Below are positions 3 to 56,850 of a stretch of DNA of 64,000 bases, piece after piece. Positions within the stretch are counted from its first letter, which is position 1. Every line of letters begins with the position of its first letter. The notes beneath the pieces were generated by a model. That model did no database searches, was not told the origin of the DNA, and saw nothing but the letters and a program-made list of their open reading frames with translations. The DNA lies in the NCBI GenBank assembly GCA_044892525.1, contig CM097887.1, positions 120,878,397-120,942,396 on the forward strand, read 5' to 3'. Both the position numbers and the translations under genes were made by a program. Source of the DNA: Schmidtea polychroa. Lineage: Eukaryota.

Positions 3-656
3 TGTGCAACGAGGAAAAACACTGGATCGAAATGGAAAGCACCTTTGACGCCAATGCCGGTACCAATAGAGCCGATGACAATGATATCAATGGACGTAGT
101 TGGTCCATTACCGGAATCGGATAGAGGAAACGTTTATATTTTAGTGATTACAGACTTTCTCACGAAATTTCCAGAAGCATTCGCGATGCCAGACCAAAAA
201 GCTAAAACAATCGCAAAAATTTTGGTAGAAGAGATATGTTGCCGATATGGAACACCAAAACAAATATTAACCGATCAGGGAACTAATTTTATGAGTGAGA
301 TAATGAGCGAAGTAACGAACTATTTCAAAATCGCAAAACTAAGAACATCTCCATATCACCCTCAAACCAATGGGATGACGGAAAGATTTAATGGAACACT
401 TATACAAATGCTATCAAACTACGTCGATCGTCACCAACGAGATTGGGACGAATATATAAACCTATGTCTTATGGCGTACAGAATGTCGATTCACGCATCA
501 ACGAAAATGAGCCCATTTAAATTAATGTACGGAAGAGAATGTAACATGCCAATGGACCTGGAATACCACCACCGATATCGCAGTATATGGAGATCAACGA
601 TTATGTTACGAAATTCAAGGAAAGAATGCAAGAAATTTGGGAAACTGCGGGATTAA
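3..656 (+). CDS. Ty3/gypsy integrase core (frame open from the window edge; frameshifted near 563-586)
   Basis: Motifs SMDVVGPLP, ILTDQGTNFMS and PQTNGMTERFNGTL give an intact D,D(35)E triad. The frame is open from nt 3 (CATRKNTGSKWKAPLTPM). Confidence 0.95.
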   Translation, partial: CATRKNTGSKWKAPLTPMPVPIEPMTMISMDVVGPLPESDRGNVYILVITDFLTKFPEAFAMPDQKAKTIAKILVEEICCRYGTPKQILTDQGTNFMSEIMSEVTNYFKIAKLRTSPYHPQTNGMTERFNGTLIQMLSNYVDRHQRDWDEYINLCLMAYRMSIHASTKMSPFKLMYGRECNMPMDLEYHHRYRSIWRSTIMLRNSRKECKKFGKLRD

Positions 657-3367
657 ATATCAAGTTCTACCAGGAAAGTTATAAAGACTTACACGATCGA
701 AAGAAAAACGTGAAGCAACATACGTTTCAAACAGGTGATTGGGTAATGATAGAAACCCCGGAATTAATTCCAGGAACCACAAAAAAGTTACAACGCAACG
801 GAAAAGGACCATATGAGATTCTATTTGTAGGCGAAACCAATGTAAGAGTGAAATTGGTAAATAATCCATTCACCAGGCCAATATACGTGAACGTGGCACG
901 ATGTAAATCAATTCCAAAAACCGCCACCAGTCAACCGGAAGGTCGAACATTAACCACACGTTCGCAAACATACAGAATGAACATGATGCAACAACTCGCA
1001 GAACCTATCACTGGACGATTGGGCATACAACCATCGGAAGCGGAAAAAATCGTACGAGAGGTAAAGATAAAATTACCCGGATGGGCAAAAGATCGATTAG
1101 ATTTCGAAATATTAGGAGGATTATTGACGATGATCGAAAATTATGCGAACAGAGAGAGGACACATCCGTTATTGCGAGTAGTTAAAAGTCAATGGCCAAT
1201 ATTATTTACAATAACAGATCATTATGGAGACACACCATTACACAAACTCATGAAAGTAGGTAACAACGAGCAAATACTAGAAACAATAGAAGCATTTCAC
1301 GACTGCAAGCGATCAACAGAACAAGAAAACAACCAAGGTTACACACCATTAATGATAGCAGCAAACAGAGGCAAAACCAAAGACATTATAACCGCATTAC
1401 TTGATACTGGATACGAGCGGAAAAATGCACTACATCATGCTATCGAAGGGAAAAGTACCGAGGCATTCACGTCTTTGATGGAACTACTATCATATGAAGA
1501 CAATCGAGAAGTCGGAAACATGTATGATGGATTGTTAACAGCGATCAAAGAAAAACTGACAACAATTACCGGAATATTAATTACATGGAGAAATCCAATT
1601 AAAAATGATTATATGATCAACGTAAACGAAGCGTTCACGAGAGGAGAGAACACGCTGATGAGAGAAGCTATGAAAGGACATCATTTATTCGAAATCCCGA
1701 ATCAATTACTAGAACGAGGGATAAAATTCACAAATCATAAAGATGAACAGTTAGCAAAAAAGCGAATCGACACATTCGAAAAATCACTATTCCAATTTTC
1801 TAACCAAGTACGAAATAAATATTGGGAAACGGTAAGTGTGTTATATATGATGGACACAATGAATAACATCCGCGAGAATTACCTGGATATTATCCAAATA
1901 CTTACAGCAGAGGAACGAATCAATAATCCAAACGGAAAGAAAACGAAAATAAGGTATGGGAAATCAAGGGAACCAAAGTCGACAACGAACCAAACGGTCA
2001 CAAACAACGTCATCGAAACCAAATCAATGAGTATAGATCAAGAGGCAATAATACGCAAAGCAAAAGAAGTATTCTTCGAGGAAATGCTAGAGCTGTCAGA
2101 CGAAATAATATTGTCAAAAATAATAAAAGCCGTACACACATACGCAAGAGACCAAACCACGGGTTTAGATATCGGGAAAATCAAAACCTTCTTGCCTCGA
2201 GCATTTACGATGGTAACAAAGGATTCCAGAACACCTCTACAACAAGCAATACTAGCTGCAAAAGAGAATAGAGCAATAACGATCATGAGAATCCTTGGGG
2301 AGATGGGCGAAGAAACCAACACGAAAAATGAACAAGGCGAAACCGCCATGATGTATGCAGCTATAACGAAAATACACCCAAAAACACTCCACATACTACA
2401 TCAATCGGGATCGAAACTAGACGAAAGGTCCAATGAAGGAAATTCCACCTTGGACTGGGCAACCATACAGCCAAACTTAGAAATGATCAGATTTATTTGC
2501 AAAAATGCGACAAAAGAAGAAGTTGAAAATATATGCAGAAACACATCTCAATTTCAGTGGAATACGGTACGGAAAAATCTAGAAGCAATGAAATTATTAT
2601 TAACATGGAGAGTACCACAAAATAATAAATACGCGATAAATGTAAACGAATTCTACGAAAACGGAGAAAACGCGATGGTAAAGAATACATTAACTAAAGG
2701 GGGGACACCAAAAATTATTTTAATAGTATTAAACAGAGAAGACCTCAAATTCACGCAAAATCAGAACGAGCAACAACGAGTTGGAAAACATCGTCGTATT
2801 CAATTGAGAGAGTTAGTCAAAGAATGGAATAGAAAGAGACATGCTGCAACGGGTAGAAAAGAGTTTGAATTCGAAGCAAAATTAGCAAGAAACAGAGTGC
2901 TAACAGCATATCGCAGATTATTGAACGATATAAATGTCGAGGACGACATTTTAAACGACAGCGGGGGAGATAAACACGATGACAATGACGGAAAAGGCCG
3001 AAAAGAGGATAAAGGGAAAAGAGAACCGGAAGAGGATAAACCGGAAAACAAGGATTTGGATACGAAAAGAGAGGGAAACAGCCCGGGAACCAAGACCAAA
3101 GAGGAGGAAAAACCGAATAATGGAAAACAGAGGGTATGCCTACCTTTCACTAACAAAGAAATAGAGACAAATATGATATTAATGATAATTATGCTTACCA
3201 TGATAGAGTTAGTAACAGCTCATGGAGGGACGAGAACGATAAAAGAAACCAAAGAAGCGGAGAATCAAGATAGCAAAGAGGATGAACTAAAACAAGAAAA
3301 GAAAAAGCAAGCACAAGAGCAGCAGTGGGATTTAAAGGAAGAATGGGACTTAAAGGAAAGGGACTAA
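587..3367 (+). CDS. Integrase C-terminal (GPY/F, SH3-like) region fused to an ankyrin-repeat protein with a hydrophobic tail
   Basis: FQTGDWVMI..KKLQRNGKGPYEI is a typical gypsy IN C-terminus. Ankyrin consensus matches: YGDTPLHKLM, QGYTPLMIAANRG, KNALHHAIEG, SRTPLQQAILAA, QGETAMMYAAI, EGNSTLDWATI. Confidence 0.85.
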   Translation: MEINDYVTKFKERMQEIWETAGLNIKFYQESYKDLHDRKKNVKQHTFQTGDWVMIETPELIPGTTKKLQRNGKGPYEILFVGETNVRVKLVNNPFTRPIYVNVARCKSIPKTATSQPEGRTLTTRSQTYRMNMMQQLAEPITGRLGIQPSEAEKIVREVKIKLPGWAKDRLDFEILGGLLTMIENYANRERTHPLLRVVKSQWPILFTITDHYGDTPLHKLMKVGNNEQILETIEAFHDCKRSTEQENNQGYTPLMIAANRGKTKDIITALLDTGYERKNALHHAIEGKSTEAFTSLMELLSYEDNREVGNMYDGLLTAIKEKLTTITGILITWRNPIKNDYMINVNEAFTRGENTLMREAMKGHHLFEIPNQLLERGIKFTNHKDEQLAKKRIDTFEKSLFQFSNQVRNKYWETVSVLYMMDTMNNIRENYLDIIQILTAEERINNPNGKKTKIRYGKSREPKSTTNQTVTNNVIETKSMSIDQEAIIRKAKEVFFEEMLELSDEIILSKIIKAVHTYARDQTTGLDIGKIKTFLPRAFTMVTKDSRTPLQQAILAAKENRAITIMRILGEMGEETNTKNEQGETAMMYAAITKIHPKTLHILHQSGSKLDERSNEGNSTLDWATIQPNLEMIRFICKNATKEEVENICRNTSQFQWNTVRKNLEAMKLLLTWRVPQNNKYAINVNEFYENGENAMVKNTLTKGGTPKIILIVLNREDLKFTQNQNEQQRVGKHRRIQLRELVKEWNRKRHAATGRKEFEFEAKLARNRVLTAYRRLLNDINVEDDILNDSGGDKHDDNDGKGRKEDKGKREPEEDKPENKDLDTKREGNSPGTKTKEEEKPNNGKQRVCLPFTNKEIETNMILMIIMLTMIELVTAHGGTRTIKETKEAENQDSKEDELKQEKKKQAQEQQWDLKEEWDLKERD

Positions 3368-3389
3368 AAGAAAGGGACTAGGAAGATGC

Positions 3390-4184
3390 ATGTCTAGAGC
3401 GTATCAGAAACTAGTACTGATAAATGAGGACACAGAACCAATAACAGAAGTAAGAATACAAGAAGCATACCGAAATCGAAACGGGAAGAGAATAACGAAC
3501 GTTAAAGGAAAAGAGGTACACCTAGGAAAAGGTGGTGAAGTAGTAATAACGCAGCTCCAACCTAGAAAAGAGCACAAAGTCTGTATTTCAAGATTAGGAC
3601 CCGGTGAGAGATGCCATCAATATGTGACGCAGCAGCAGCCGCCGAAAGAATACACGGTTTGTATCTGGAGAAACGAATCAAAAAGAGAATGCCGACGATA
3701 CCCGGGGAAAAGAGGAAAGAAAAGAAAAAACCACGACGAAAAGGACGAAGGAGGAAAGCACAAGAAAACCGGCGAGGAAGCTCAGGACAACTATGTTTCG
3801 GAGGAAGAGATGGAAAAAATACAAAAGATGGCAAAGGAGGGTATGAACGAGGAAATAGCAAGAATACGAGAGATGATGAAAGGGAATGGCAAAAGAGGGA
3901 ACGAGAAAAGTACAGAAGCAATATCAACATTAACAAACAAGGAAAAACCAGAGAGTATAAGCGTGAAGCAGATGATGTGGATCAGTGGGATAATAATAAC
4001 AGGGGCCTTCCTAATCATAACGGGGGGAACAATAAAAATAATTAAAGATAAACGACATCGCGGAGAACTAGAGATGACCCGAATCAGAAATTTCCAACAT
4101 CGAGTGAAACGACCAAGTGATATCAAACAAGAACAGTGGGTGGAGGCCTGGAACGCTCAGCGCCCTCCAAACTCACGTATATAG
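3390..4184 (+). CDS. Element A accessory ORF, unknown; duplicated Cys-pair motif and one predicted TM helix
   Basis: 264-aa ORF in the element's A-rich style. TQLQPRKEHKVCISR..RCHQY and TQQQPPKEYTVCIWR..ECRRY; hydrophobic MMWISGIIITGAFLIITGGTI. Confidence 0.7.
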   Translation: MSRAYQKLVLINEDTEPITEVRIQEAYRNRNGKRITNVKGKEVHLGKGGEVVITQLQPRKEHKVCISRLGPGERCHQYVTQQQPPKEYTVCIWRNESKRECRRYPGKRGKKRKNHDEKDEGGKHKKTGEEAQDNYVSEEEMEKIQKMAKEGMNEEIARIREMMKGNGKRGNEKSTEAISTLTNKEKPESISVKQMMWISGIIITGAFLIITGGTIKIIKDKRHRGELEMTRIRNFQHRVKRPSDIKQEQWVEAWNAQRPPNSRI

Positions 4185-4344
4185 AAAGGAATATAACTGT
4201 ATATAATTGTAAAAAGTAAGTATATCTTATGTATATAACAGTACTATATCTGTATATAAGCGTGGTATCAATATTATACAATAACGGGAATCATAAAATA
4301 AAATTAAATTTAAATAAGAGTTGAAAAGTGTATATAAATTAAGA

Positions 4345-4704
4345 ATGGATCAAGGAAATAACGAAATGAACCACAATACAGTAACTGAAGAATTATGGAA
4401 GCAACAATGTGCCGTATTAGCACAATTAGTGTCCAATTTGCAAGAACAAGGATTGACGATGCACAGAAACCTAATCGAGAGTATGAATAGAGGATTTAGT
4501 TATTTGAAGACAATTGAAGACCAGAGGTTGAAAATCGAACAAATGCAAAGAGAGATAGAGAGGATAACCCAATATAGCCGTAGACAGGAAATTGAACTAG
4601 AAAGAATGATGGAGGAAGCAGAACAGACAGAAATAGAAGACTGGTCGGAATGGCTAATGAATAGAGAGGAGAGCGGACACGAAGCCGACTCTTCCGAACC
4701 CTAA
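4345..4704 (+). CDS. Element A accessory ORF, small coiled-coil protein
   Basis: First ATG at 4345 follows an AT-rich spacer; helical E/Q/R-rich sequence. Confidence 0.6.
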   Translation: MDQGNNEMNHNTVTEELWKQQCAVLAQLVSNLQEQGLTMHRNLIESMNRGFSYLKTIEDQRLKIEQMQREIERITQYSRRQEIELERMMEEAEQTEIEDWSEWLMNREESGHEADSSEP

Positions 4705-4789
4705 ACCAAACCTAGCTTAAAATGTAAATAATTGTAAATAAAATATCGAACCTATATCGATAAGAACTATATGTACATATAATTATAGA

Positions 4790-6178
4790 ATGGATAAACG
4801 ACAAAGAGAAGAGTTCAGAGAGATTGTTGAACGAGTCCGAAAGTCTACAACGATCAGAATACACAAACATGTTATGTGCGGAATATGTGAAAAGTTGTTA
4901 AAAGAACCTCACCAAACTCAATGTGGATGCAGAGTATGTAAAGAATGTATCAGTGAAGCAATAAAGAATAGACCACAGTGGTGCCCGGTGTGTAAAGAGA
5001 CACTAATATCGAGTTTAGAAGACACTAACGAGGATAAAGCCGCAGTGAAAGACATGTTAAACACCAACCTGGGATGCAAAAATGCCCCATGCGAATGGAA
5101 AGGAGTAATATGGAAGGTAGTACAACATATGGGAGAATGTATGTACAGAATTGGCCAGTGTGAAAGGTGCCATAAAACCATTCGAGCAAGCGAAGAAAAA
5201 GAGCATCAAAGGCAGTGTGAAGAGAGATTGGAAAGATGTGAACATTGTGGAGAAATAGATACGTGGAAAAATCTCACCCTCAAACATCACAATGTCCAAG
5301 AGGAGAGGGAATGTGCAGAGTTCAGTGGGGAATGCCCAAACGGATGTAACCAAGGGGAAATAATAAAGGTGGCACAGCATCTAAGGGAATGTGAAAAGAA
5401 AAGAATGACATGTGTACTAGGTAAATGGGGTTGTCAGAAACTACTACACCGAGGGGAGTTACCACATCATTTAGTAGAAAATGCTTCAACCCACGCAGAA
5501 ATGTGGTCGACTGCGTTACAAGAAAGCGAAGAGAAAGTAAAACAAATGGAGATAGAGATAACATCGTTGAAAGTGCTAGTCAAAGAATTACTAGAAGAAA
5601 GGGAAGCGTTCGAAGAAGCCCGAGCAAACATAAAGATGCAAATAAACCGAATAGAAATCAGTAATAATCAGGCCAAGGAGCTACATCAGAAAATACGGGA
5701 AATAAATCTAAATGAGATAACCCCAACAGCACCCTACATATGGAAAATAACGGGAGTAAAAGAAAGAATACGAAAAGCAAAACCCGGAGAAGAGACAAGA
5801 ATAACAAGTCCTGCATTCCATTCTTGGAAAAATGGGTACAAAATGAAAATGAAGATATATCCCAACGGGGACGGAACCGGATTAGATACACACTTTTCGA
5901 TTTTCTTTCTGTTATGTAAAGGGGAATACGACGAAATAATAGAGTGGCCGTTCCAGGCAAAAATCGATATTGCACTAATGAATGACCGAAGCATCCACGA
6001 ACAAAGCTTCAAGACAACTGGAAACCAAATGTGTTACCAGAGACCTACGGAAGAAGAAGGATCAGCAACAGGAGCACCTACGTTCATCCTACAACAAAAA
6101 GTAGAAGATATGGCAAGAAATGACACGGTGTATATCAAGATGACCGTGAGGAAAGAGGAGAAGGGCAGAACGGAGTAA
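4790..6178 (+). CDS. TRAF: Full-length intronless TRAF (TRAF2/3/5-like): RING, TRAF zinc fingers, coiled coil, MATH
   Basis: RING CGICEKLLKEPHQTQCGCRVCKEC..CPVC; zf-TRAF repeats (CKNAPCEW..HMGEC, CPNGC..HLREC); MATH PYIWKITG..GYKMKMKIYPNGDGTGLDTHFSIFFLLCKGEYDEIIEWPF. Confidence 0.95.
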   Translation: MDKRQREEFREIVERVRKSTTIRIHKHVMCGICEKLLKEPHQTQCGCRVCKECISEAIKNRPQWCPVCKETLISSLEDTNEDKAAVKDMLNTNLGCKNAPCEWKGVIWKVVQHMGECMYRIGQCERCHKTIRASEEKEHQRQCEERLERCEHCGEIDTWKNLTLKHHNVQEERECAEFSGECPNGCNQGEIIKVAQHLRECEKKRMTCVLGKWGCQKLLHRGELPHHLVENASTHAEMWSTALQESEEKVKQMEIEITSLKVLVKELLEEREAFEEARANIKMQINRIEISNNQAKELHQKIREINLNEITPTAPYIWKITGVKERIRKAKPGEETRITSPAFHSWKNGYKMKMKIYPNGDGTGLDTHFSIFFLLCKGEYDEIIEWPFQAKIDIALMNDRSIHEQSFKTTGNQMCYQRPTEEEGSATGAPTFILQQKVEDMARNDTVYIKMTVRKEEKGRTE

Positions 6179-6371
6179 CTAATCGAATAATGTTGTATAT
6201 AATAATCTGTATATATCGGTGTATATAACCAATAAAATATTATATAATAATAGTATGAAAACCCTAAATACGAAAACCCAAAAATGATGCAAAAATTTCC
6301 AAAGAAACAGTAAATAATGAATAAATTCCTTTTTCATAATAAAAAGATTAATCGATGTCTATGATTTAGAG

Positions 6372-7427
6372 ATGACACAAGAGAAACTAACCGAAACTGC
6401 GATAGCCCCAACCAATGTCAACAAGACACAAATTCCCCGAGAACATAACAAAAAATGGAACAAAGTAATGTTCCAACTAACTAATCTCACCCGAAATCAC
6501 ATCGAAGAAGCTAGAGAGGATGAGAATAGTCAATACCAATGGTTAATACACAACTTAAGAGCGGAAGGAGAAGCATGCAAAAGAGCATCAAAATGGGCGT
6601 CACTAGAAAATACCCGCCAAGAAGCGCACAGCCACTACTTAAAGCAGCTAGTGCAGGAAGCGAGAAAGAGACTTACCGATGAGAACACCAAGCGCGAAGC
6701 GGAAAAGCAAATAGAAGGAAGGAAAATGATGCACTTAGTGGCAGAAGCGAGAAAATGGAAAAGACAAAACAGTGAAATGAAAAAAGAGATGAAAGAATTG
6801 CCCATGAGACTCGGATATGAAAGCGAACAAGGTAAATGGGAGGAGAATTTAATAATAAAGGAAGAATTGAAACGGTTGAGAAAGGTCGCCGCCCGAAGTC
6901 AAACCTGGCAAACAAAGGCTATGGAGTTTGAGCGACATTTCGCAATAAAATGCGACATAAGAGAGCACGAGAATGCCGCAATGGAAGAGATGATAACCCA
7001 ACAAGCAGGACGGGTTGTGGAATTAGTAAATCAGGTAGAAGAGATGAAAAGAGACCTTAATGGATTACAAGGATCGTTGGAACAAAGAAACATGGTCCTA
7101 GCTGGAAAAAACAGAAAATTAGAAAACGAAAGGAAAATGTACACCGAAAATATCAAAAACTTGGAAATAGAAATTGAAAAATGGAAGGGCGACGAGAAAA
7201 TCAAGGCCCTAGATAGACAAATAGAGATGAAAGACGAAGAGACAAGGTACCTCACCTACCTGCTCGACGAAGAGCTGAACATCACTCGAGCTCTAAGAGA
7301 CGAAATTAATGAGTTGAGAGCCCAAATTCCCCAATATTACCTACCATACGACCCTATTGCGATACAGTTACATCCCGCGGTCGATAGTGATGAAGGTTAT
7401 GTAGGCCAGGAGGAAACCTTCGTATAA
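6372..7427 (+). CDS. Element A accessory ORF, long coiled-coil protein of unknown family
   Basis: Uninterrupted 351-aa E/K/R-rich helical ORF flanked by AT-rich spacers; ends ETFV. Confidence 0.7.
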   Translation: MTQEKLTETAIAPTNVNKTQIPREHNKKWNKVMFQLTNLTRNHIEEAREDENSQYQWLIHNLRAEGEACKRASKWASLENTRQEAHSHYLKQLVQEARKRLTDENTKREAEKQIEGRKMMHLVAEARKWKRQNSEMKKEMKELPMRLGYESEQGKWEENLIIKEELKRLRKVAARSQTWQTKAMEFERHFAIKCDIREHENAAMEEMITQQAGRVVELVNQVEEMKRDLNGLQGSLEQRNMVLAGKNRKLENERKMYTENIKNLEIEIEKWKGDEKIKALDRQIEMKDEETRYLTYLLDEELNITRALRDEINELRAQIPQYYLPYDPIAIQLHPAVDSDEGYVGQEETFV

Positions 7428-7593
7428 GGGTGAATAAAAGATGAAAACAAAAATCGGGACGTATATCCCAAAAAAAAAAAATTAAAGTATTGTAAAAGTA
7501 TTTAAGGGACTGTAACCCGAACTATTAAATTTTATATAAATGTATATGTATAAGTCGCACTATAGCGCACCATTAACTGTACATATTACAGAT

Positions 7594-8298
7594 ATGAAAA
7601 TCGAGGAAATAATAGAAATTACGAGCGACGTAGAAGAGGGAGAGATTGAGGCAGAAACAACAGAAACACAAACGTTAAAGGCCGAGTTACGGGAAGAGAA
7701 GTACGAAAACGAGAGACTAGTAAACAAATATATAGAAGACCGAAAAATGATTAAAATACTTAAGAAAGAGTGCGAAGTGCTAGGAGAAATAAAGAGAGAA
7801 GCCGAAGAGAAGAATGAATGGCTGCAAGAACAACGAAAACGAGGAAGAAATTGGGAAAGGATTGCAGAGGAACTATGGCAAGAGAGGGCAAGCTTCAAGG
7901 CAGAAGAAGTAATCCAGGATTATTGGAAAACAGAGGCGAAAGAACGCCAAATAACTATAAATAAATTAAATCAACAATTGGAGGAAAAACAACGAGAAAG
8001 TGAGGAAATGAAGAAATGGATTCGCAAATACCAAGAGATCGAGAGAAAACAACAACAACAACAACGAAACCTTTCGCAGGAAAACGAACAAGATTTCCTA
8101 CAAATCGAACTAAAAAGGAATCTCGACAAAAAACGGGAAGAAATTAGAAGACTGAAAAAGGAGATAAGGCACATGAAAAGGGAGGTCCGTGAAAAGAACA
8201 GACAGTTGGAAATGCTGCCCGAGTTAAGACACAGAGTCATTAAAGCGGAATCCACCTTGATGAGAATCGCCGAAAATAACCCAAATCAGAACCATTAA
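7594..8298 (+). CDS. Element A accessory ORF, coiled-coil protein of unknown family
   Basis: Long charged helical ORF; likely start at ATG 7594 after TTACAG (the track starts at 7540). Confidence 0.7.
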   Translation: MKIEEIIEITSDVEEGEIEAETTETQTLKAELREEKYENERLVNKYIEDRKMIKILKKECEVLGEIKREAEEKNEWLQEQRKRGRNWERIAEELWQERASFKAEEVIQDYWKTEAKERQITINKLNQQLEEKQRESEEMKKWIRKYQEIERKQQQQQRNLSQENEQDFLQIELKRNLDKKREEIRRLKKEIRHMKREVREKNRQLEMLPELRHRVIKAESTLMRIAENNPNQNH

Positions 8299-8353
8299 AT
8301 TAAGGGTCACTAAAACCAATTGTAAATAAACATAATGAATGTATAATAGTATC

Positions 8354-8998
8354 ATGCGAGGCGAGATGATGATAACAATGACGGTATTGATGATTCTGAT
8401 GGAGAACAAACAAGTAAACGCCCAACCGAAAATCGTACGAGATTACCGCAATCAAAATCAAGAACCTAAACAAGAATCCGGCAAATGCACATACCCTATG
8501 ACAGTAAAAACCCATATCATCCAAACCATTCAATCAACCCGATCACACATCAACAACATCCAAACAATGTGTAAAAAGAATCCCATTTGTACAATGATAA
8601 ACAAACAAATTCTCGAACAAATCCAACAATTCGACCAGTTAGAACAACAAATGCAACAAGAGAATTTTGAAAATCTTGTAGAAAAGCCAAAAACACCTCC
8701 CGAAATCAATGACACCCATTATCTCATATATGTGGTGATTGCAGAAACCCTCCTCCTATGTCTACCAATACTCATGAAGATTTACGAAGTTAGAAATAGA
8801 TGTAGAATCTCGACATCAATAAGAGTAATCTCGAACAGAAATCCTCAAGAAGTGCCACTGACAAATCTTAACCCAACCCCATTCCGACCTCGAATCCCGA
8901 GTAACCAACCAATCCAGCCGAATTCTAACAGTCAGACCTATCTCAACATCAATACCCAAACCAACCAACAGCCGCCAACAGAAGCATCAAATGATTAA
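8354..8998 (+). CDS. Element A accessory ORF, predicted type I membrane protein
   Basis: Signal-like MMITMTVLMILMENKQVNAQ, two Cys in a Q-rich ectodomain, TM YLIYVVIAETLLLCLPILM, N/Q/P-rich tail. Confidence 0.65.
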   Translation: MRGEMMITMTVLMILMENKQVNAQPKIVRDYRNQNQEPKQESGKCTYPMTVKTHIIQTIQSTRSHINNIQTMCKKNPICTMINKQILEQIQQFDQLEQQMQQENFENLVEKPKTPPEINDTHYLIYVVIAETLLLCLPILMKIYEVRNRCRISTSIRVISNRNPQEVPLTNLNPTPFRPRIPSNQPIQPNSNSQTYLNINTQTNQQPPTEASND

Positions 8999-9575
8999 TA
9001 GTTCATAAATTCTAACTCAAACATTTGTGTTATCATATGTGGAAACTTTTATTGTATATACAAACTATCACCTTAAGTGATAATTGCTTGGTCTTGATTT
9101 GACCTATATCTTAGAATAAAAATTTTTTGTTTTTGTATAAATGTTTCGATATATCCTTTTTATGAATGCATGAAGTAAGATAACTATGCAATTGCGGGAC
9201 GCAATTTTGATGGGTCCCCGAGTGATTTGTTGGGCTGAGCCGAAAGATAGCTGGGAAATCAGGTTAAACTTAACTAAAGAAAAATAAAAAAAGAAAAATA
9301 AAATAAAAAAAATAAAATAAATAGATTGAGAAATAAAATAGAATAGAATATAAGAAAAGCAATAATTAGAAAATAAGAATTAAAACAAAAAACATAAAAA
9401 TAAGAACAATTAAATAGGACAATAGAATGACGAAAAATAACGTAAAAGGTAGTAGATAATAAGGAAATTAAGGGAAATAAATAAAAACATAATTTTAATA
9501 AAGAAAATAAGAAGAAATAACCCAAAAACAAGGAAAAAAAATTAAATGAATAAAATAAGGCGGTACTCAATTCTG

Positions 9576-9609
9576 ATTGGTCCGCATAAACAAAAAATAC
9601 CTATATAAG
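9576..9609 (+). promoter_or_regulatory. LTR promoter: reverse CCAAT box (ATTGG) and TATA box (TATATAAG)
   Basis: ATTGG at 9576 and TATATAA at 9602. The same arrangement recurs in the LTR-like repeats at about 49,700(-) and 32,190(-). Confidence 0.55.
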
Positions 9610-11652
9610 TAAACAGCAAATTCACTATAGTCAATGTTAAAACCAAACCAATTATAGGTAAGAATAGTATTAACTACATAAATGTTAAAACCAAACCAAT
9701 TATAGGTACTCGACAATCAGGAAAACCAAACCATACTCAGACGACTATTAGGGACAGTTCTATAGACTACTCATTCATATAACCGATTTGATCAGTTTAT
9801 ATTTCGGCTCAGCCTTTGGAACTACAGAATTTTTCAAATAATAAAGTAAGGGTGTATTGCTGTTATGAAATTTGTTTTTGAAGGATTAAATATTTCTATT
9901 ATATTAACCTAACCTTTGAATAAAAACTTCTCCATTCGATTTCAATTTTTTAATGATTTTATAGTTCATAAATTAATTTAAAGGTTAATGATATATAAAT
10001 CTTTATGCTATGTTTTGTCATCGAACGTATTGATTATGCTAAAATTATTTTTTTGAGAAACGTGGAGTTGAGGAGACCCACGCCATGGTATGAGGAGCCT
10101 TCGGGAGCTCAGCCGGCGGGTGTGGATCTCTTCAATCACGCAGCTGACGTGGGCCGGAATGTGGGGGCTTCCTCACGGGTCCGTCGCTGAGGGAAATAAA
10201 ATGCTGCAAGCACGGGTTTAAAGTACAGAGGAATGTATTCCAATATTGAAAAGTAGAGCAAATTTGAATTGAAAATGACTGAGGTGGCTACAAACTCTTA
10301 GTAAACATTACACTCTGAAATTTCATCCGACATCAGAAATCGTATATTGACATCAACTGACATTCCATCTTTTAGCAGAAAAATATTTTTCTATCAAAAC
10401 TTACTGCGTACAAATAGGTTCATCAAATGCGAAATCAGAATATAGAGAGCATAAATAAAGATTTATTCAACAAAAGATTTGTAGCATAAATATAATTGTC
10501 AACAAACGCTGTAATTTTTCCATTGCTTCTGAAAATCCACGATAGCGGCAACGCGAGGTTCTTTCTATAAATGACTCTTTCGACCAAAATAAGAGAGATT
10601 TCTGTTGAATGAACTGCTGGGAATATTTCCCGAAATCACAACATCCAAGTTGAAAAACGGAGGGAACTGCACATCGCGAGAATAAAATTCCAACGTTCAT
10701 GCGCGGTGAGAATTACTCATAGAGAACATATTGAATAACTAAAATAATTCCAACTCGCAGTGTGAGACGATCAGCTGCAACCCGTTGACATAGATAGTAA
10801 GGAAACAGACAAGGCAAATCACACGCATTGCCACATATAAATACACACTGACATATGCCGCATGCATCCTTTTCCCAGCCCGCTGATGACGGTGAGAACA
10901 AAAATTGAAGCACACGCTCATGACATAATCATCTCCAATAGATATGTATCTTTCCGATTCATGTGGCTAATGATTTCTACGAGTGATTCATGCGTCGTCG
11001 GATGACTGTTAATAATCGACTAAATTTTATAGGTTGATTGCACTAGTAGACTCCATAATGAAAAATAAATTAATTGATTTTAGGATGGGGATAGAAATCT
11101 GATCATACGCGACTTATTAAAAATCTAACAGTAGCACGTTGATTAACCGGGTTTTCTGAATTTAATATTCAAATATGAGTTACAATTTGGGGCCATAAAT
11201 TTAAGGATCGTTCACGCGGCCCTGGAGAATTTGTTTTACGTTTTTCAAAAATAAATATCTGTAGTCGAAAAGCTATGTGCAAAAATGAGCATTAATTATT
11301 CAATCATGCAAATATTCCTGATTCTTCCTAAACCATTTCTATGGTAAACTGTAAATCTAATGTCCATTATGTCAATACATTCGCGAGTCATTTTTCACGT
11401 AAATATTTGAAAATCTCAGATAACGGTAGGTAATGAATATTTTGAGTATAACCATAAATTTTTGGCAGAGTATTATCCAAATGTTAATTTCTCTTACACC
11501 CTAAATAGACCTCTAAAAATTCACTGAATGCAATTAACACTATTTCTAACGAAACTATATCATTTATTCTTTCCCCTTTTACTTAATTTTACGAAAATCA
11601 ACAAATGATTGTGTCCATACTAGTTTAGTAGAGATCGCTGATCTTAATTCTT

Positions 11653-12303
11653 ATGCTCATTGTTTCTTTGTTACAGCTATCAACAATGTTGCCAAGCTCG
11701 AAGCCGTCGCTCAAACCCTGTTTCTCCTGTGCCGACAAAAATACCGTAATCCGAGAATTACAGGCCCAGATCGGTCGATATAAAAAGAAAATCGACGATC
11801 TGGAAGGTACATGGTTTAGCCCAGTACAAATGAAGGAGGTTCAAAAGAAATTGTACCGCAGTGAGCATTGTCGCGATGCTTTGATAAGCGAAAGTAGAGC
11901 TCAGCGTAGCCTAATCAAAGAGCAGTCCGAAGCTCTACATAAAGTTTACGTCCAAGCCGCTACAACCCGAAGGATCGTTAGTATTCCGATTAAAGAAGCG
12001 GACAATGTCTTCCCCGTTCACCATGAACCTTCATTTAGTTCGCCACCCTTGTCGAAAAGATCTTGTCAGGAATGTGTGGAGGCCGACCTCTCCCCCAGGC
12101 CATCGGACGTACCTACTCCCGGTACTGGCAAGGTATCGCATTCAGCCACGACGTCCTCGGCAATCTTGTCTGCTAACCCCTCAAAACCTAAGCGTCGCCA
12201 ATTGTCCAGAGCGGAGCGTAAGAAGCGCCAACGTGAACGGGCAATTGTCAAACAACGAGAACTATCTGCCAACCCCCAAGTGCTTCGAATGATCCACCCG
12301 TAA
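11653..12303 (+). CDS. Unknown repeat-borne ORF (CxxC, coiled coil, basic tail), copy 1; probable start ATG 11686 after a splice acceptor
   Basis: LKPCFSCADKN..QMKEVQKKLYRSEHCRD..IKEQS; two degraded homologues in the window; TTTCTTTGTTACAG acceptor ends at 11676. Confidence 0.55.
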   Translation: MLIVSLLQLSTMLPSSKPSLKPCFSCADKNTVIRELQAQIGRYKKKIDDLEGTWFSPVQMKEVQKKLYRSEHCRDALISESRAQRSLIKEQSEALHKVYVQAATTRRIVSIPIKEADNVFPVHHEPSFSSPPLSKRSCQECVEADLSPRPSDVPTPGTGKVSHSATTSSAILSANPSKPKRRQLSRAERKKRQRERAIVKQRELSANPQVLRMIHP

Positions 12304-13004
12304 CGATCGATCTGACCGTAGGAATCCCAGGGCGAATCATATCTGCCGCTGGTGTGACTTGGGAGGAGAATGCCTCCGAGTTTTTTTATCTAGAAGAGCT
12401 ATTGGCGGATGCGGGGTGGGAGAAGTGAGGGCCGCAACACAATACAACCGTGCAGGGCGCGAATGGACAAATATACTATCATGACTCCTTTTCTTCTTAA
12501 TCTATTCTCCACCAAGTGTACTTGTTATGTAGTGTATAATTATCTAATGTATCATGATAATAAAATAAAGAAATTTTTGGTTAAAATTTTGTTGTTGTTT
12601 AAATCTAACTAGCTGTGGTAAAGGTTCAGAGTAGTGTTCGCAAAGCGAGAGTAAATTTTGAGTTCGAGAGGCAGTGGTCAATTTTGTGCCGAACCATGGG
12701 TCAGGGTAGAGAGAGAATCTGATGAGGTAAACAGACGTAAGTCCTTCCAGCGGCCGTCAGAAAGGGAAGTCGAGGCCTCATTAAGGAGTAGTCCTAAGGT
12801 AGGGGCTCACCTGCTTACTGGAGTCTCGCCAGCATAGCACATTTCCAACGTGAAGCAATTCGCGGGTGCTATGTTGGAGGGCAGGTTGTGCGGGGTCCTG
12901 CTCCGGGTGGACACGGGCGTATGTAGCGTACTGATATGGACACGCATCCCCTAGACAAGGACGTAGATTGAGCAGAGTCAACCAAGCACTACCCCAGCAC
13001 AACA

Positions 13005-15992
13005 TTAATATAATAAATTATTTGTAATAAATTATTTTTAGGATTTTTATGAATTTTATGAATTTATTTGGAATTATTTCGATATATTGTAAGTCAGATT
13101 TATGTTTAACTAAAAATAAATAAAGTAATCGCGAAACACAATTCTCATTTCTTCCATAGATACATAGAAATTGGATTCAACGAAATCAAACAACTTATTT
13201 CCTGGTTCTTCTGAAATCAATTGCCTTATTGCTAACTTATACCCTTTGGAAATTTTCACATATTTTTAATACCAGAAAATTATTATTCCAATAGATTTTT
13301 TCGTGATTTCAAGTAATCTTCAAAATTCTTCGTGATTCTCAACATATTCAAAAAAATATTTTTAGTTGAGTTTTGTCATGTTCCGTAATTAATATTTGAA
13401 TTTTTTCCTGTAAATTCAAAGCAATTGAAGAACACCGTAATTAATATTTGAAATTTTATCTTTAATTCGATATTGATTGTATTCCGGTTATGTAGATAAA
13501 TCTGATGACAAAGATAATGGGGTTTCTATATCGATCAGGATCTGGTTCAACAGTGATTTTTCAGCATGTGGAGATTTTTGTTAACTCTATTAAATTTCAG
13601 ATTTTTCCGGAATTCACTTTACTGGTAAGTTCTATTTGTTGTTGAATAAATATTTTAAAAGAATTTGTTATTATGATTTTTTAAGTAAGATTTTTTTAAT
13701 TTTTAAGTAAGTTTTAAAGCTTAAATTCAAATCTCAGATAAAAATGAGATCATTATTCAAGCTCTTAAATATTACTTTTAGTCAACATTAATATTATAAA
13801 TTATTTGTAATAAATTATTTTTAGGATTTTTATGAATTTTTTGAATTTATTTGGAATTATTTCGATATAATGTAATTCAGACTTATTTTTAACTATAAAT
13901 AAATAAAGTAATCGCGAAACACAATTCTCGTATCTTCCAAAGATGCAGAGAAATTGATTGTATTCCTGTTATGCAGATATTTTTGATAACAAAGATAATG
14001 GGATTTCTATATCCATCAGGGTCTGGTTAAATAGTTTTTTTTGAGTATGAGGATATTTTTGTAAACTCTAGTTTATTTCGGATTTTTTCGGAATTCACTT
14101 TACTGGTAAGTTCTATTTGTTGTTGAATAAATATTTTAAAAGTATTTGTTCTAATGATCTTCAAGCAAGTTTTGTTTTAATTTTTAATAAACTTTTAAGG
14201 CTTGAAATCAAATCTCATATAAAAATGAGATCATTATTCAAGCTCTTAAATATTACTTTTAGTCAAAATTAATATTATAAATTATTTGTAATAAATTATT
14301 TTTAGGATTTTTATGAATTTTATGAATTTATTTGGAATTATTTCGATATAATGAAAATCAGATTTATGTTTAACTATAAATAAATAAAGTAATCGCGAAA
14401 AACAATTCTCATTTCCTCCAAAGATTCATAGAAATTGATTTCTGTTATGCAGATATTTTTGATAACAAAGATAATGGGATTTCTATATCGATCAGGGTCT
14501 GGTTAAATAGTTTTTTTTTGAGTATGAGGATATTTGTGTAAACTCTAGTTTATTTCGGATTTTTTCGGAATTCACTTTACTGGTAAGTTCTATTTGTTGT
14601 TGAATAAATATTTTAAAAGTATTTGTTCTAATGATTTTCAAGCAAGTTTTGTTTTAATTTTTAATAAACTTTTAAGGCTTGAAATCAAATCTCATATAAA
14701 AATGAGATCATTATTCAAGCTCTTAAATATTACTTTTAGTCAAAATTAATATTATAAATTATTTGTAATAAATTATTTTTAAGATTTTTATGAATTTTAT
14801 GAATTTATTTGGAATTATTTCGATATAATGAAAATCAGATTTATGTTTAACTATAAATAAATAAAGTAATCGCGAAAAACAATTCTCATTTCCTCTAAAG
14901 ATTCATAGAAATTGATTTCTGTTATGCAGATATTTTTGATAACAAAGATAATGGGATTTCTATATCGATCAGGGTCTGGTTAAATAGTTTTTTTTTGAGT
15001 ATGAGGATATTTTTGTAAACTCTAGTTTATTTCGGATTTTTTCGGAATTCACTTTACCGGTAAGTTCTATTTGTTGTTGAATAAATATTTTAGAAGTATT
15101 TGTTATAATGATTTTCAAATAAGTTTTATTTTAATTTTTAATAAACTTTTAAGGCTTGAATTCAAATCTCAAATAACAATGAGATCATTATTCAAGCTCT
15201 TAAATATTACTTTTAGTCAACAATAATATAATAAATTATTTGTAATAAATTATTTTTAGGATTTTTATGAATTTTATGAATTTATTTGGAATTATTTCGA
15301 TATAATGTAAATCAGATTTATGTTTAACTAAAAATAAATAAAGTAATCGTGAAAAACAATTCTCCTTTCCTCCCAAGATGCATAGAAATTGATTGTATTC
15401 CTGTTATGCAGATATTTTTGATAACAAAGATAATGGGATTTCTTTGTCGATCAGGATCTGGTTTAATAGTGAATAATAGATCATTATCATTTTAAGGATT
15501 TTTATGAATTTTATGAATTTATTTGGAATTATTTCAATATAATGTAAGTCAGATTTATTTTTAACTATAAATAAATATAGTAATGATATTTAATGATATT
15601 TATATAATGATATTTATATAATGATATTCAAATAATGATATTTATATATCGATCAGGGTCTGGTTTAATAGTGATTTTTGAGTATGTGGAGATTTTTGTA
15701 AACTCTAGTTAATTTTGGATTTTTTCGGAATTCACTTTACTGGTAAGTTCTATTTGTTGTTGAATAAATATTTTAGAAGTTGTTGTTAGAAATGATTTTC
15801 AAGTAAGTTTTTTTTTAATTTTTAAGTTACTTTTAAGGCTTGAAATCTGATCTCACGTAATAATGAGATCATTATTCAAGCTCTTAAATATTACTTTTAG
15901 TCAACATTAATATTATAAACTATTTGTAATATATTGTTTTTTGGATTTTTATGAACTTTTCTGAAATTATTTAGAATTATTTCGATATAATT
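13005..15992. repeat. Tandem satellite, about 477-481-bp unit, about 6 copies (first and last irregular)
   Basis: Marker GAGATCATTATTCAAGC recurs at 13746, 14227, 14704, 15181 and 15865. Confidence 0.92.
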
Positions 15993-16121
15993 TAAGTAGT
16001 TGATGCTAAATTATTAGTAAGTCCCGTGTGTGATGAACCATTAGTATTAGCCGATCATGAACTTGGTCTTAATGCTAGAAGTGCAGTTTAATCATTGAAA
16101 ACTAAGGAAATTTGCTATAAT

Positions 16122-18197: not shown

Positions 18198-19135
<938 letters not shown>

Positions 19136-24510: not shown

Positions 24511-27002
24511 CATAGATTCCCAACCTGTGGTACGCGTACCACTAGTGGTACGAATTGATAATTTTGGTGGTACGCCAAGAGTTTTGTACTTTTAAAAAAC
24601 TTATATTTTATGCTAAGATAACAAAAAAATTAATCAAGCTATAAATTCGTATATTCTTCTGATAGAACGATACATACCCAACATATTCAGAAAAATATGC
24701 GTAGTTAAAAGAAAAATATTTTTAGTACTAACACGTTCGAACAAATCCAGAAATATACTATTAGGTTTAGTTTTTATTTTAATTTACAAAGCAAGCTGGG
24801 GTGTGATAAATTTGTATCCATCTTATTAAGAAATAGTCCATAAGTAAATTATTATTTTTTAGATTTTTCAAAAAGAAAAAAATATTTCTATCCGGATTCG
24901 AACCAGCCCCCGAAGTTAAGGTCTTACCAATTTTTTTACCCATTGATAATGAAAAATTTTGCCGATAACAATGAAAATTTAAGTTCATATAGCGAAGAAG
25001 AGGAAATCTTTGAAAAGACAAATTGTGTGCAGAAAAAAAAGCATAAAAAGAAAGAGAAAGTAGCCAGGCTCTATAATCCAGAATACTTAAGCTATGGATT
25101 TTCAATTAAATCTGGCTCAGAGTCTTTTCCGATTCCGCAGTGTGTTATCTGTTTCGAAACTTTATCAAATGGATGCATGAAACCATCACTTTTAAAAAGG
25201 CATTTCTCAACTAAGCATCTGGAACTAAAAGATAGGCCTTCGGAATATTTTCAAAGGAGGGTTGCGGAACTGGGCCTTCAAAAAGCTTTTATGACATCTT
25301 TCAGCAATTTAAACACAAATTATGTTCGGGCTTCATATTTAGCGAGCTTACATATAGCAAAATGTGGAAAGGCACATACAATTGGTGAAACTTTATTGCT
25401 GCCTGTTGCTAAAGATATCGTAAGATCAGTATTTGGCGAAAATTCAGCGAAGGAAATCGAAAAAATCTCATTGTCGAACAACACGGTAAAGTCACGAATA
25501 GACGATATGGCAAATCAGATAGAAAAAATTTTAATCTGCAGATTAAAAGACTGTTGGTTTTTTTCTTTGCAGCTTGACGAAAGTACCGACGTTTCAAATT
25601 TGGCTCAATTACTTGTCTATGTTCGATTTGATTTTATGAACGAAATACACGAAGAAATGCTTTTTTGTAAACCTTTGAAAATGAGAACAACATCTAATGA
25701 AATTTTTAACATACTTACTGGTTACTTTGCTGAAAATGAAATAGACTGGAATAAATGTGTAGGGATTTGCACACATGGTGCTCGAGCCATGATTGGAAGC
25801 TTATCTGGGGTAGTTACAAGAATTAAAGAAGTTGCCGTTATGTATTTCTACGCATTGTATAATTCATCGTGAATCTTTGGCGGCAAAAAATATGCCCGAT
25901 CCCTTGATAACAGTTCTAAACGAAGCCGTAAAAAAGATAAATTTCATAAAGTCTCGAGCACTTAATTCCCGATTATTTTCAATTCTATGCAGTGAGATGG
26001 GAAGTGACCATACCACACTGTTGCTGCATACTGAAGTCCGGTGGCTTTCAAAAGGAAAAGTTTTAAGTCGACTATTTGAATTGCGAAATGAGGTAAAAAT
26101 CTTTCTTAAAACTTCCCAAGAGCGAAACGATATTAATTTTACAAATGAAATTTGGTTGTCTAGGCTTGCATACTTATCAGATATTTTTGCTAGGCTGAAT
26201 GAATTAAATTTAAGCTTACAAGGCGCAAACAATTCGGTGTTTGATCTCAACGACAAGATATTAGCATTTAAGAGAAAATTAAGATTAATATTGCAACAGA
26301 TTGAAAAAGGAGATATTTCAATGCTTTTTTCTTTAAGCGCCTTTGTTGATGAAAACAAAATTTCTGTTTCTGAGCAAGTATTGGCCGATATTAATCAACA
26401 TATCATATCCATGTTACAATCCTTTGAAAAGTATTTCCCGGAAAACGTTATTTCTCAAAATTGGATTCGAAATCTCTTCGCATTCCAATTTGATATCCCA
26501 GATAATGTTAATGATAAGGAATCTTTTATTGATCTAATTAGCGATGGCAATTTAAAAATTAAATTCAGTAACTCTAATTTGTGCTCATTTTGGCTTTCCA
26601 TTCGTAAAGAATATCCTGAATTGTCAAGTCAAGCTATTAAATTTTTAATGACATTTAGTACTACGTATTTGTGTGAAACTGGATTTTCAACCATGTCAGC
26701 GATAAAAAATAAATACAGATCATTGCTTAGTATAGAATCTGATCTTCGTCTCAAATTGTCGAAAATTTCACCAGATATTTCCATGTTAGTTAGGAATAAA
26801 CAAGCTCAACCATCTCACTAAATAAAAAAAAATATTATGAGCAAAAAATTTTTAGTTTTTTTGTTTGATTTTTTTTCTTAACCACAAAAGAAATTTTTTA
26901 TATATAAAATGCTAGATTTAAAATAAGCCCCCCAAATTTTTTACGTGGTACTCAAAAATTATTTTTAGTGGTACGAAACCCAAAAAAGGTTGGGAACCGC
27001 TG
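24511..27002 (+). mobile_element. Full-length hAT (Buster/Charlie, SCAND3/ZBED8-like) DNA transposon
   Basis: TIRs CATAGATTCCCAACC and GGTTGGGAACCGCTG; perfect 8-bp TSD AGATAGGG (24503-24510, 27003-27010). Confidence 0.95.
24943..26821 (+). pseudogene. hAT Buster transposase, frameshifted near 25,835; second catalytic Asp replaced by His
   Basis: BED finger PQCVICFE..LKRH, SLQLDESTD, CTHGARAM (canonical CTDGA), THCIIHRE, HTEVRWLS, TYLCETGFS, split over two ORFs. Confidence 0.93.
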
Positions 27003-43767: not shown

Positions 43768-46026
43768 CAGGGGTGCCCACTAATTTTTCTAGGAGAGCTA
43801 CATTCACATCCAAAATGTGTATGCGATCTACTTTTTTAATACTTACATAATATTTACCTACAATGCAATAAATTCATCATAATAAAACAAATATATGTCA
43901 AAATATGGAAAATTAAACTATATAACTATTTATTATAAAAAAATGTAACTTAGGAAATCAAATTTAATGAAAATTATTTTTATATAGAACTTTTCGATGT
44001 TGATGCTCTACATTGGGTTGAATCCACAAGATTTTTGTAGTTTGGGATATAAGTGCTAAGACAACTTCTTAGGCTGGATTCCAAATGGTCATCTGTTAAT
44101 GTTGCTCGGTACTTTGACTTTATAATTTTAATATGTGAAAATGCAGACTCACATAAATAAGTTGAACCAAAAAATGATACTAAATTTTCGAAGCATTTTT
44201 TCAAGTTTGAATATTTATCCTCGGATAGATATTTCCATACATTTGGTTCGGAAGATCTTGATTTAATGAAGATATCATTTTGAAGTGTGATTATTTCCAT
44301 TTCAAGTATAGGGATATCCATTTTAAACAAAGTTGAAATTGAATCTGCAACAATTTCTGGTTTTATTTTTGGATTAAACGGAAAGGACATAAATGCAGCC
44401 ACAATTTCAAGTTTCTTGAAGTCTTGAAAACGTCTCTCGAACTCTAAAACCAAAATTTTGATCTGTTCCGCATATCTCGTAATATTAAAGTTGACATTTT
44501 CAGATTCTTTTAATTGTGACAACATATTTGGAAAATAACTTAAATTTTTGTCTTCTATTTTGGTAATAAGTAAATGAAGCTTTTGTATAAATGCATTGAT
44601 TGAACTTATCATATCGAATATCAATTTATCCTTAACTTGTAAGTCGAGATTTAATTCATTCAGAATTGCAGTAATATCTACTAAAAATGCCAAATCCAAG
44701 AGCCAAACATCATCTTCCAATTGCTTGAACTCATCACCTCTTGCGGCAAGGAACAACTTAATCTCAGAAAGCAAATCTCTAAATCTTTGTAAGAATTTTC
44801 CTCTACTTAGCTACCTTACATCTGAATGCATCAGTAATTCAGCAGGACCTTCGCTATTACTTTCTTCAATTTGTAATTTGAAAAGTCGTCTCTGAAGACT
44901 TCTTGCACGAATCGAGTTAGCAATTTTGAATGTTATTTCCATAATATCTCTCATATTCAGAATGTTAGCACGCAAGGCTTGTTGATGAATAATACCGTGG
45001 TAGGAAAGAAAATCTGGGAATTCACAATCATTCCTACAATATGCTATAAATCCGTTGTGACGCCCTGTCATAGCTGGTGCGCCATCTGTTGTTATTGATA
45101 CAAGCTTACAAATTTGGAGCTGAATGCTGTTGGCATAAGCTTTAAAATTCTGAAATATATCCTCACCTCGAGTTTTACTTTTGAGTGGTATAATTGTTAA
45201 TAATTCTTCCTTCGTAGAAAAATCTTTAAAGACCATTCGAATAAAAATTATAAGCTGCGAAATATCAGCCGCATCAGTTGATTTGTCTGCTTGCAATGAA
45301 AATGCGGTACAATTTCCTATGTCTAACATTAACTGATTTTTTAAATTGGTACTTATTTCTTGGACTCTCCGTGTAACTGTATTACGGGACAATTGCATAT
45401 CAGTAATAGCAGAAATTATATCTGATTTATTTTTAAAATCACAAAATAATGATTCTGCCGCTTCTAAAAATGCTTCTTTTACAATTACTCCATCACTAAA
45501 AGATTTCTTATTTTTTGCCAGAATGTAGCTTACTCGGAAAGATGCAGCTGTAGCTGACTTTGATTTGGATGTTAGCTTCGTAAAAAATGACTGTTGAAAA
45601 GAAATGCATGTTTTCAGTTCCATGATTTTAGACTTACGTAGTTCACTGTCAAGTGGATAATCAACTACAAAATTCTTATGAATTGTCTTGAAATGCCTTT
45701 CCAAATTCCCTCTTTTTGGTAATGAAATAGTAGCTTTACAAATTAAGCAACAACATTTACCTTTAATCATTACAAAAAAGTACTCCTTCTCCATTTCTTC
45801 GCTATAATGATAAGTCTTGGCTTTTTTATTTAGCATTTTTAAACAAAATTAATTTAACAAAAAAGCTTAAGAAAATTTTTCACTTTGTTACACAAAAATT
45901 TAAGCATAAAACAGAAATTTTATATAAAATCTAAATTTATATAAAAAATATTTTTTTTATGAAGATCTACTAAAAAATCCTTCGCGATCTACCGGTAGAT
46001 CGCGATCGACCTTATGGGCACCCCTG
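43768..46026 (-). mobile_element. Full-length hAT (SPIN/GTF2IRD2-like) DNA transposon
   Basis: TIRs CAGGGGTGCCCA and TGGGCACCCCTG; perfect 8-bp TSD TTATACAT (43760-43767, 46027-46034). Confidence 0.95.
43980..45836 (-). pseudogene. hAT transposase with one in-frame premature stop (HSDVR*LSRG, W to TAG)
   Basis: The two track ORFs are in frame; motifs CCLIC..LERH, SLQADKSTD, TTDGAPAM, STYLCESAFS. Confidence 0.93.
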
Positions 46027-56631: not shown

Positions 56632-56850
56632 CTTTAAAATCAATTATTGTTATTCACAATTTGGGGGATAGGAATTGAGATCAGAGGGTATAGTATTTTA
56701 TATTGGGAAAATATATTTATAAAAATAATATCATTGATCAATTTTTAAATAAATAAATTCAGTTTTGAAAATTATTAAATAATTCAAAAAGATAAAATAG
56801 ATAATCAACCCTAAATAGTTTATAATCTCAGAAATAGAATAGTCTATAGG

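Follow-up and report, generated by a model that had tools for sequence, protein, structure and literature searches.

Two ankyrin modules between the integrase and a second predicted membrane protein in a giant envelope-carrying Ty3/Gypsy family of Schmidtea polychroa

A family of giant retroelements in Schmidtea polychroa encodes a single polyprotein in which two ankyrin modules lie between the integrase and a predicted internal signal peptide. It was studied from a copy in a stretch of 64,000 nucleotides, referred to below as the window (GenBank assembly GCA_044892525.1, contig CM097887.1, positions 120,878,397 to 120,942,396 of the forward strand), where an earlier note, made from the letters alone, had described an integrase C-terminus fused in frame to ankyrin repeats. 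The family, called here the twin-module family, is a young, multi-copy, envelope-carrying Ty3/Gypsy family of about 30 kb, and both of its modules are under purifying selection and constitute functional cargo. With a confidence only a little above even, we consider that the modules may be a protease-released, host-modulating protein that would act on host signalling. Planarian genomes contain many young elements of the Burro group, to which the family likely belongs, and a cargo protein of Burro1 reportedly aids regeneration. Their ankyrin cargo has not been dissected in the literature searched, and the genome studied here, in which three families with two modules, one module and none live side by side, offers a natural comparison for module function.

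An in-frame integrase-ankyrin polyprotein

In the window, a frame without stops runs from 545 to 3367 on the forward strand, as do all features of the element given below, and leads over 940 amino acids (aa) from the C-terminal part of the integrase into ankyrin repeats, with Ank_2 matched in three stretches at E 1.7e-17 (window open reading frames (ORFs) and Pfam). The claim that the GPY/F module passes without a stop into at least six ankyrin-like repeats is borne out, six recognisable repeats being present, three per module. The SH3-like (GPY/F) module that closes the integrase lies at 725..910 and aligns with two co-resident families, Y and W, described below; its Pfam match in the 940-aa frame (SH3_Tf2-1, E 0.23) is under the cut-off. 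A short basic linker follows (956..994), which combines a TRSQT stretch with a candidate retroelement-protease site, RMNMMQQ, predicted by matrix score at the integrase/ankyrin border. Module 1 (1040..1835, about 290 aa) opens with a helical cap, has its three clear repeats at about 1226-1500 and ends in degenerate ones; behind a spacer comes module 2 (2039..2950, about 305 aa), in which three repeats are clear (about 2228-2530), others are degenerate and a helical hairpin forms the C-terminus. The tail continues with an acidic, charged linker of low complexity (2951..3165), a hydrophobic stretch (3170..3220, hydropathy peak 1.78) that is predicted to be an internal signal peptide and has the same position in families Y and W, and a second predicted membrane protein (3221..4184), composed of an ectodomain of about 250 aa with no assigned fold, another hydrophobic and presumably transmembrane stretch at about 3972-4035 and a short tail. 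Signal peptides were called from hydropathy alone, and the second membrane protein gave neither a Pfam family nor a usable Atlas match. The figure of about 800 aa of ankyrin repeats given by the earlier note was overstated: about 600 aa of the tail are ankyrin modules, with canonical repeats over only about 100 aa in each, and the remainder is spacer, acidic linker and hydrophobic signal-like stretch.

On an unbroken copy (L007), Ank_2 matches module 1 at E 1.1e-16 and module 2 at E 3.2e-9, so that the assignment is significant beyond the window. The two modules resemble each other with 25% identity over 250 aa (E 8e-18) and 20 of 105 residues identical in the repeat cores; judged from this alignment, they are old, diverged duplicates. 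Module 2, modelled with AlphaFold2 on an alignment of three rows, reached a mean pLDDT of 74, with 79-91 across the first 170 residues, and single-sequence models of both modules (pLDDT 32) were not used.

A genome search with the ankyrin region returned 765 candidates. Scores were taken for 78 of them, with identities of 96-100% throughout, and in 44 of these 78 the open frame measures exactly 4,732 aa from stop to stop. The 30 best loci, chosen by likeness in the ankyrin region and including the window copy and a few likely duplicates, hold the integrase core and the first ankyrin repeats in one frame in 27 cases, the second membrane protein in frame with the ankyrin part in 23, and the whole course from the integrase core through the last membrane stretch in 21. 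A stop between integrase and ankyrin region, which had been named in advance as the finding that would undo the fusion, was found in none of the intact copies. The ratio of nonsynonymous to synonymous substitution (dN/dS), taken over pairs among the 30 loci that are not independent of each other, was 0.02 for the integrase, 0.03 for the 30-codon linker and 0.08 for each module, with 0.24-0.26 for spacer and acidic linker (0.26 in the latter).

Since the window copy is broken on both sides of the ankyrin region, the fusion might be put down to misassembly or to read-through by chance, or taken for neutral baggage. This explanation is refuted, and we give it practically no credence: dozens of dispersed copies with target duplications of their own keep the frame, the modules show a dN/dS of 0.08, sister family Y carries a module at the same place, and contigs from other public runs, 80-90% identical, span both modules, one of them crossing the integrase-ankyrin joint. 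The contigs of run X7 are without cover over module 1. Because contigs of 80-90% identity extend over both modules, diverged relatives are present elsewhere; the contigs carry no expression information.

The window copy itself is damaged. Its integrase catalytic core (3..570; rve E 8.8e-14 at 69-362), whose frame extends upstream of the window through reverse transcriptase (RT), RNase H (RH) and protease (PR), lies in the frame 3-656 and not in that of the ankyrin repeats. Comparison with the copy at G000:C1:31.42 Mb places frame breaks near 568, where the core is cut from the tail, and near 3365, and reveals a loss of 7 residues inside module 1, within its first repeats. The window thus joins the C-terminal SH3/GPY-F module to the ankyrin part, as claimed, whereas its catalytic core is off-frame and fusion of the whole integrase is seen in other copies only. 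The stop at 3367, at which the earlier note had ended the tail, is a product of damage and not the natural end of the polyprotein, because a break lies near 3365 and unbroken copies continue to a stop at 4184. Upstream of the window, the copy is deleted from within the 5' long terminal repeat (LTR) to the end of the envelope region (env). Its near-identical LTRs (the truncated 5' LTR begins 4,624 bases before the window and is 99.6% identical to the 3' LTR over 1,588 common bases), the flanking 4-base target duplication CAAC and a deletion joint that occurs once in the genome mark it as a recent, dead insertion. A non-autonomous subfamily behind the deletion was ruled out by the same single joint. 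A tandem repeat of about 480 bases surrounds the copy (window 13000-16000 and 4.6-21 kb upstream).

The twin-module family and its relatives

In the unbroken copy L039/L040, Pfam finds in one frame gag, CCHC knuckles (three in this family), a viral fusion glycoprotein, PR, RT, RH, integrase (IN) and ankyrin, the env-type match (Monjiviricetes_fusion, E 3.4e-56) lying upstream of the protease. The order PR-RT-RH-IN behind gag is that of Ty3/Gypsy, and the TG...CA LTRs, primer site and short target duplication are those of an LTR retrotransposon. Where both ends could be resolved, in two copies, the element is 29.8 and 30.4 kb long, with LTRs of 3.9-4.2 kb; 4-base target duplications were resolved in 17 of 20 copies, and the paired LTRs of these are 99.9-100% identical. 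The 3' LTR of the window copy (9228..12999, about 3.8 kb, by LTR comparison) contains a 223-aa ORF at 11632-12303 and is followed by the duplication.

Some observations on the ends of the element may be added. LTRs of different copies are strongly diverged in type, often 70-85% alike over parts only, with a polyprotein that is 97% identical, and the two LTRs within each copy are near-identical despite the divergent types between copies (L034-L049), a pattern that suggests LTR exchange between sublineages. Each LTR contains an ORF of 223-264 aa without known family. The primer site, presumably tRNA-Pro-like, starts 7 bases past the 5' LTR (L038-L041, L046-L049); no purine tract was seen ahead of the 3' LTR in these copies, and families W and V have a normal one. 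One copy (L106/L107) is apparently inserted in a family W LTR, W's own 4-base duplication flanking both.

Family Y (35 kb, 4,791-aa polyprotein, 57% identical to the twin-module family over env-pol) has a single ankyrin module at the equivalent place, MATH inside the polyprotein, and TRAF and BIR-RING ORFs downstream. In family W (3,334-aa polyprotein, 38% identical to the twin-module family) the end of the polyprotein passes from integrase-SH3 to signal stretch, ectodomain and membrane stretch, without ankyrin. The slot between integrase and hydrophobic stretch holds two modules in the twin-module family, one in Y and none in W. Because W has none and Y has one at the same place, the ankyrin module is cargo inserted into this slot, and spread does not require it; the ankyrin-free family W is likewise young and abundant. 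All three families end their polyprotein with a second predicted membrane protein, and the ectodomains differ by family (window 3170-4184; L063:7890-9191).

Fate and function of the modules

Read by hydropathy, the hydrophobic stretches of the tail would serve as internal signal peptide and membrane anchor, a pattern that would repeat that of env. Pol and the ankyrin modules, flanked by the env anchor and the second signal stretch, would then face the cytosol and stay attached to the membrane at either end as long as no cut is made, an uncut integrase-ankyrin product being held there by the hydrophobic stretch directly behind the modules. On the reading that we favour, the element's own protease would cut the modules off the integrase, and the freed modules would act as separate protein-binding modules. 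Their target would most likely be ubiquitin, cell-death or immune signalling, to which the TRAF, Bcl-2-like and ubiquitin-like cargo and the BIR-RING cargo of the sister family would be directed as well. The TRAF-like protein is encoded by a separate ORF (4742..6178) with RING, zinc fingers, coiled coil and MATH (TRAF-mep_MATH E 3.3e-26, zf-C3HC4 E 2.5e-4), which shares 29% identity with the corresponding ORF in family Y; the matches to Bcl-2 (E 0.036) and ubiquitin (E 0.004) are both under the Pfam cut-offs, and the stretches concerned align with family Y.

A cut between integrase and ankyrin is likely from the scores of a cleavage matrix, which was built on ten sites from three families picked at the borders of capsid and nucleocapsid, at the nucleocapsid end, at the protease start and between RH and IN. 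The linker site ranks 8 of 4,725 windows in the twin-module family and 21 of 4,784 in family Y, and it has the top protease-like score of the 760-aa interval in the former and the second best in the latter. In favour of a cut, too, selection holds the linker as tightly as the integrase.

As to the partner, structure searches match the module 2 model to ankyrin solenoids in general. In the PDB results of Foldseek, natural proteins begin with Bcl-3 at rank 7 (12% identity), tied with designed repeats. Among at least 500 viral fold matches, the top one falls on part of the polyprotein of the planarian secretory cell nidovirus (E 1.1e-5, TM 0.48), a part which we infer to be its ankyrin domain; this domain is reported to be closest to planarian RHD-ankyrin proteins and was proposed to be an IkB mimic (PMC6211748). 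IkB mimicry makes up about a third of the credence that we give to a released host modulator. A more specific version, with two protease-released IkB mimics that would share an origin with the nidovirus domain, work with the element's TRAF, damp immune or death signalling in stem cells and extend the Burro1 mutualism, seems to us quite improbable; under it, both domains may come from a host NF-kB-like precursor, or a transfer between virus and retroelement may have taken place.

Protein searches and the 1.84-billion profile search returned generic ankyrin proteins or nothing, with no close relative or host donor in lists that long repeat proteins crowd, and no IkB-family chain stands among the 60 matches listed from the PDB sequence searches. 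In the host genome, RHD_DNA_bind had no match anywhere, controls included. RHD_dimer found one gene, with no ankyrin exon in the 100 kb covered and with an RHD exon that matched only itself; from its motif we take this gene to be NFAT-like. Ten host ankyrin loci match the module profile over generic repeats only. Many ankyrin matches, about 144 bases apart, also form arrays close to the ends of contigs, where stops within the frame are frequent (G000 C4:86-93 Mb, C1:263-265 Mb, C3:2-8 Mb), and host-type MATH/TRAF exons are densely clustered at G000 C2:105-124 Mb and 1-5 Mb, a possible donor pool for the element's TRAF.

Several points weigh against a released host modulator. The best protease-site score was reached by 155 of 1,000 shuffles in the twin-module family and by 412 of 1,000 in family Y, which is not significant, and the training set of the matrix was chosen by eye. 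Family W shows, with the same matrix, no good site between integrase and signal stretch, so that a membrane protease may do the release and leave integrase and ankyrin joined. The presence of ankyrin and TRAF together in two sister families counts as one event, not two. The fold matches are generic, with a top Z of 15.5 and with EHMT1 (13.7) and NF-kB p100 (13.0) tied, and the nidovirus match has a root-mean-square deviation of 10.4 and only a tenfold lead in E-value (next E 1.5e-4). The protease-release branch of the earlier note's proposal, with a putative IkB-like inhibitor that would act together with the TRAF, fits the anatomy and release is favoured here, but the cut itself is a prediction whose score does not stand out from shuffles.

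The other branch of that proposal was a new integration-targeting module. Here the modules would remain part of the integrase, and the integration complex would be anchored through them to a mark or protein of chromatin. Chromodomains sit behind the integrase GPY/F module in chromoviruses, and the ankyrin modules occupy this very position, in frame in 27 of 30 loci and under purifying selection; the statistical weakness of the linker protease site and the EHMT1 ankyrin domain among the fold matches (Z 13.7) would also be in keeping with a tether. However, the methyl-lysine cage of G9a/GLP is formed by three Trp and one Glu (W839, W844, E847, W877; PMC4255711), and neither the G9a-type spacing W-x4-W-x2-E nor its loosened aromatic/acidic form occurs in any of the three modules, as far as this cage geometry goes. 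Insertion sites showed no bias either: 74 twin-module copies (those left of the 78 once two from an unplaced contig and two that lie close to others are set aside) are spread over four large contigs in proportion to length (chi-square p 0.27, Kolmogorov-Smirnov p 0.21). Among the families with two, one and no module, target duplications were resolved in 17/20, 9/10 and 5/10 copies, are 4 bases long throughout and have the same A/T preference three bases outside; the GC content of the flanks is 0.27, 0.30 and 0.27, and repeats lie in the flanks of 8/17, 5/9 and 3/5 copies, so that no target-site difference was seen in these small samples, a comparison blind to chromatin. An uneven spread of family Y over contigs was set aside, being based on the best 150 matches with ties in contig order. 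With no G9a-type cage, no difference seen in insertion sites and a family W that is young without ankyrin, integration targeting is unsupported, and we regard a tether as unlikely, though not negligible.

Alternatively, the modules could be an assembly scaffold, held at the endoplasmic reticulum by the signal stretch that follows and linking capsid, pol or the second membrane protein to the budding or trafficking machinery. In either of the two families with ankyrin, the predicted signal stretch follows immediately on the modules, and module 2 and family Y have both kept the C-terminal helical hairpin beside the linker. Family W, however, has the same layout of envelope and second membrane protein without ankyrin, and doubling with deep divergence of the modules would suit two changing host partners better. 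A scaffold is therefore a doubtful explanation, which we would still keep in mind.

Modules that stay on the integrase would be a new targeting device, and modules that act as free IkB-like inhibitors would mean that a retroelement tunes host immunity as poxviruses and polydnaviruses do. Between these two, we weakly favour the free inhibitor.

Other features of the window

Four accessory ORFs accompany the TRAF-like ORF: one of 128 aa without family in front of it (4318..4704; window ORFs, Pfam) and three behind it (368, 252 and 219 aa; 6321..8998), the first two of which have counterparts in family Y. Elsewhere in the window, 56815-60796 holds a gag-like ORF of another gypsy-type element and then a 438-aa ORF that is exonuclease-like by eye. 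Fragments at 18464-19027, 24844-26821 and 43980-45848 resemble what we take to be piggyBac- and hAT-type transposases.

Comparison with known systems

Ankyrin cargo of Burro-type elements has reportedly been listed since Jurka 2007. Burro elements are giant gypsy-like LTR elements of planarians, reviewed after Jurka 2007 and Grohme 2018; Burro/GYPSM1 exceeds 30 kb and has a 4,873-aa polyprotein with env between gag and pol and with MATH_TRAF_C, BIR, Bcl-2-like and ankyrin motifs, ankyrin being found also in Burro-2 to -4 (PMC6431247). Since ankyrin, MATH/TRAF and BIR are published for Burro/GYPSM1, ankyrin cargo is already known in the described Burro group, and its novelty, as the earlier note saw it, is unsupported. 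The text of that review gives neither the number and place of the ankyrin repeats nor a second membrane protein. The literature searched yielded no paper on how many ankyrin repeats Burro elements have, where they lie or what they do, and figures or supplements of the primary papers may show place and duplication.

Compared with Burro by its published description, the twin-module family likely belongs to this group: it shares a size of about 30 kb, LTRs of several kb, one polyprotein of 4,700-4,900 aa, three CCHC knuckles, env between gag and pol, the order PR-RT-RH-IN, ankyrin repeats and TRAF/MATH cargo. The layout of Burro1 itself is that of family Y, with 35 kb, MATH in the polyprotein and a BIR-RING ORF. 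In contrast, the twin-module family has two modules where Y has one, no MATH in the polyprotein and a full TRAF ORF downstream. In its scanned ORFs neither BIR-RING nor BIR was found, which sets it apart from Burro1, and no dUTPase-like stretch was matched by Pfam. By the same description it may be one of Burro-2 to -4. The BIR-RING cargo of Burro1 is said to protect stem cells, in a text that cites Lee 2026 (PMC13465017).

Other systems share single traits with the element. HSV/gB-type errantiviruses with GAG-ENV-POL order have been described in Platyhelminthes and likewise place env between gag and pol in a flatworm Ty3/Gypsy element; the words ankyrin and Burro are absent from the main text of that source (PMC13524379). 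Chromovirus integrases also carry an extra domain behind GPY/F, and G9a/GLP readers also have the ankyrin fold; unlike these, the twin modules have no G9a-type cage, are followed by a membrane protein and go with no visible target bias. The planarian secretory cell nidovirus, itself a parasite of planarians, likewise encodes a giant polyprotein in which three divergent ankyrin repeats lie close to a membrane stretch, but it is an RNA virus, and its domain strongly matches host RHD-ankyrin proteins by sequence (PMC6211748). Against this background, novelty may lie in the twin-module form, in the series of families within one genome that have two modules, one or none, and in the weak connection with the nidovirus domain.

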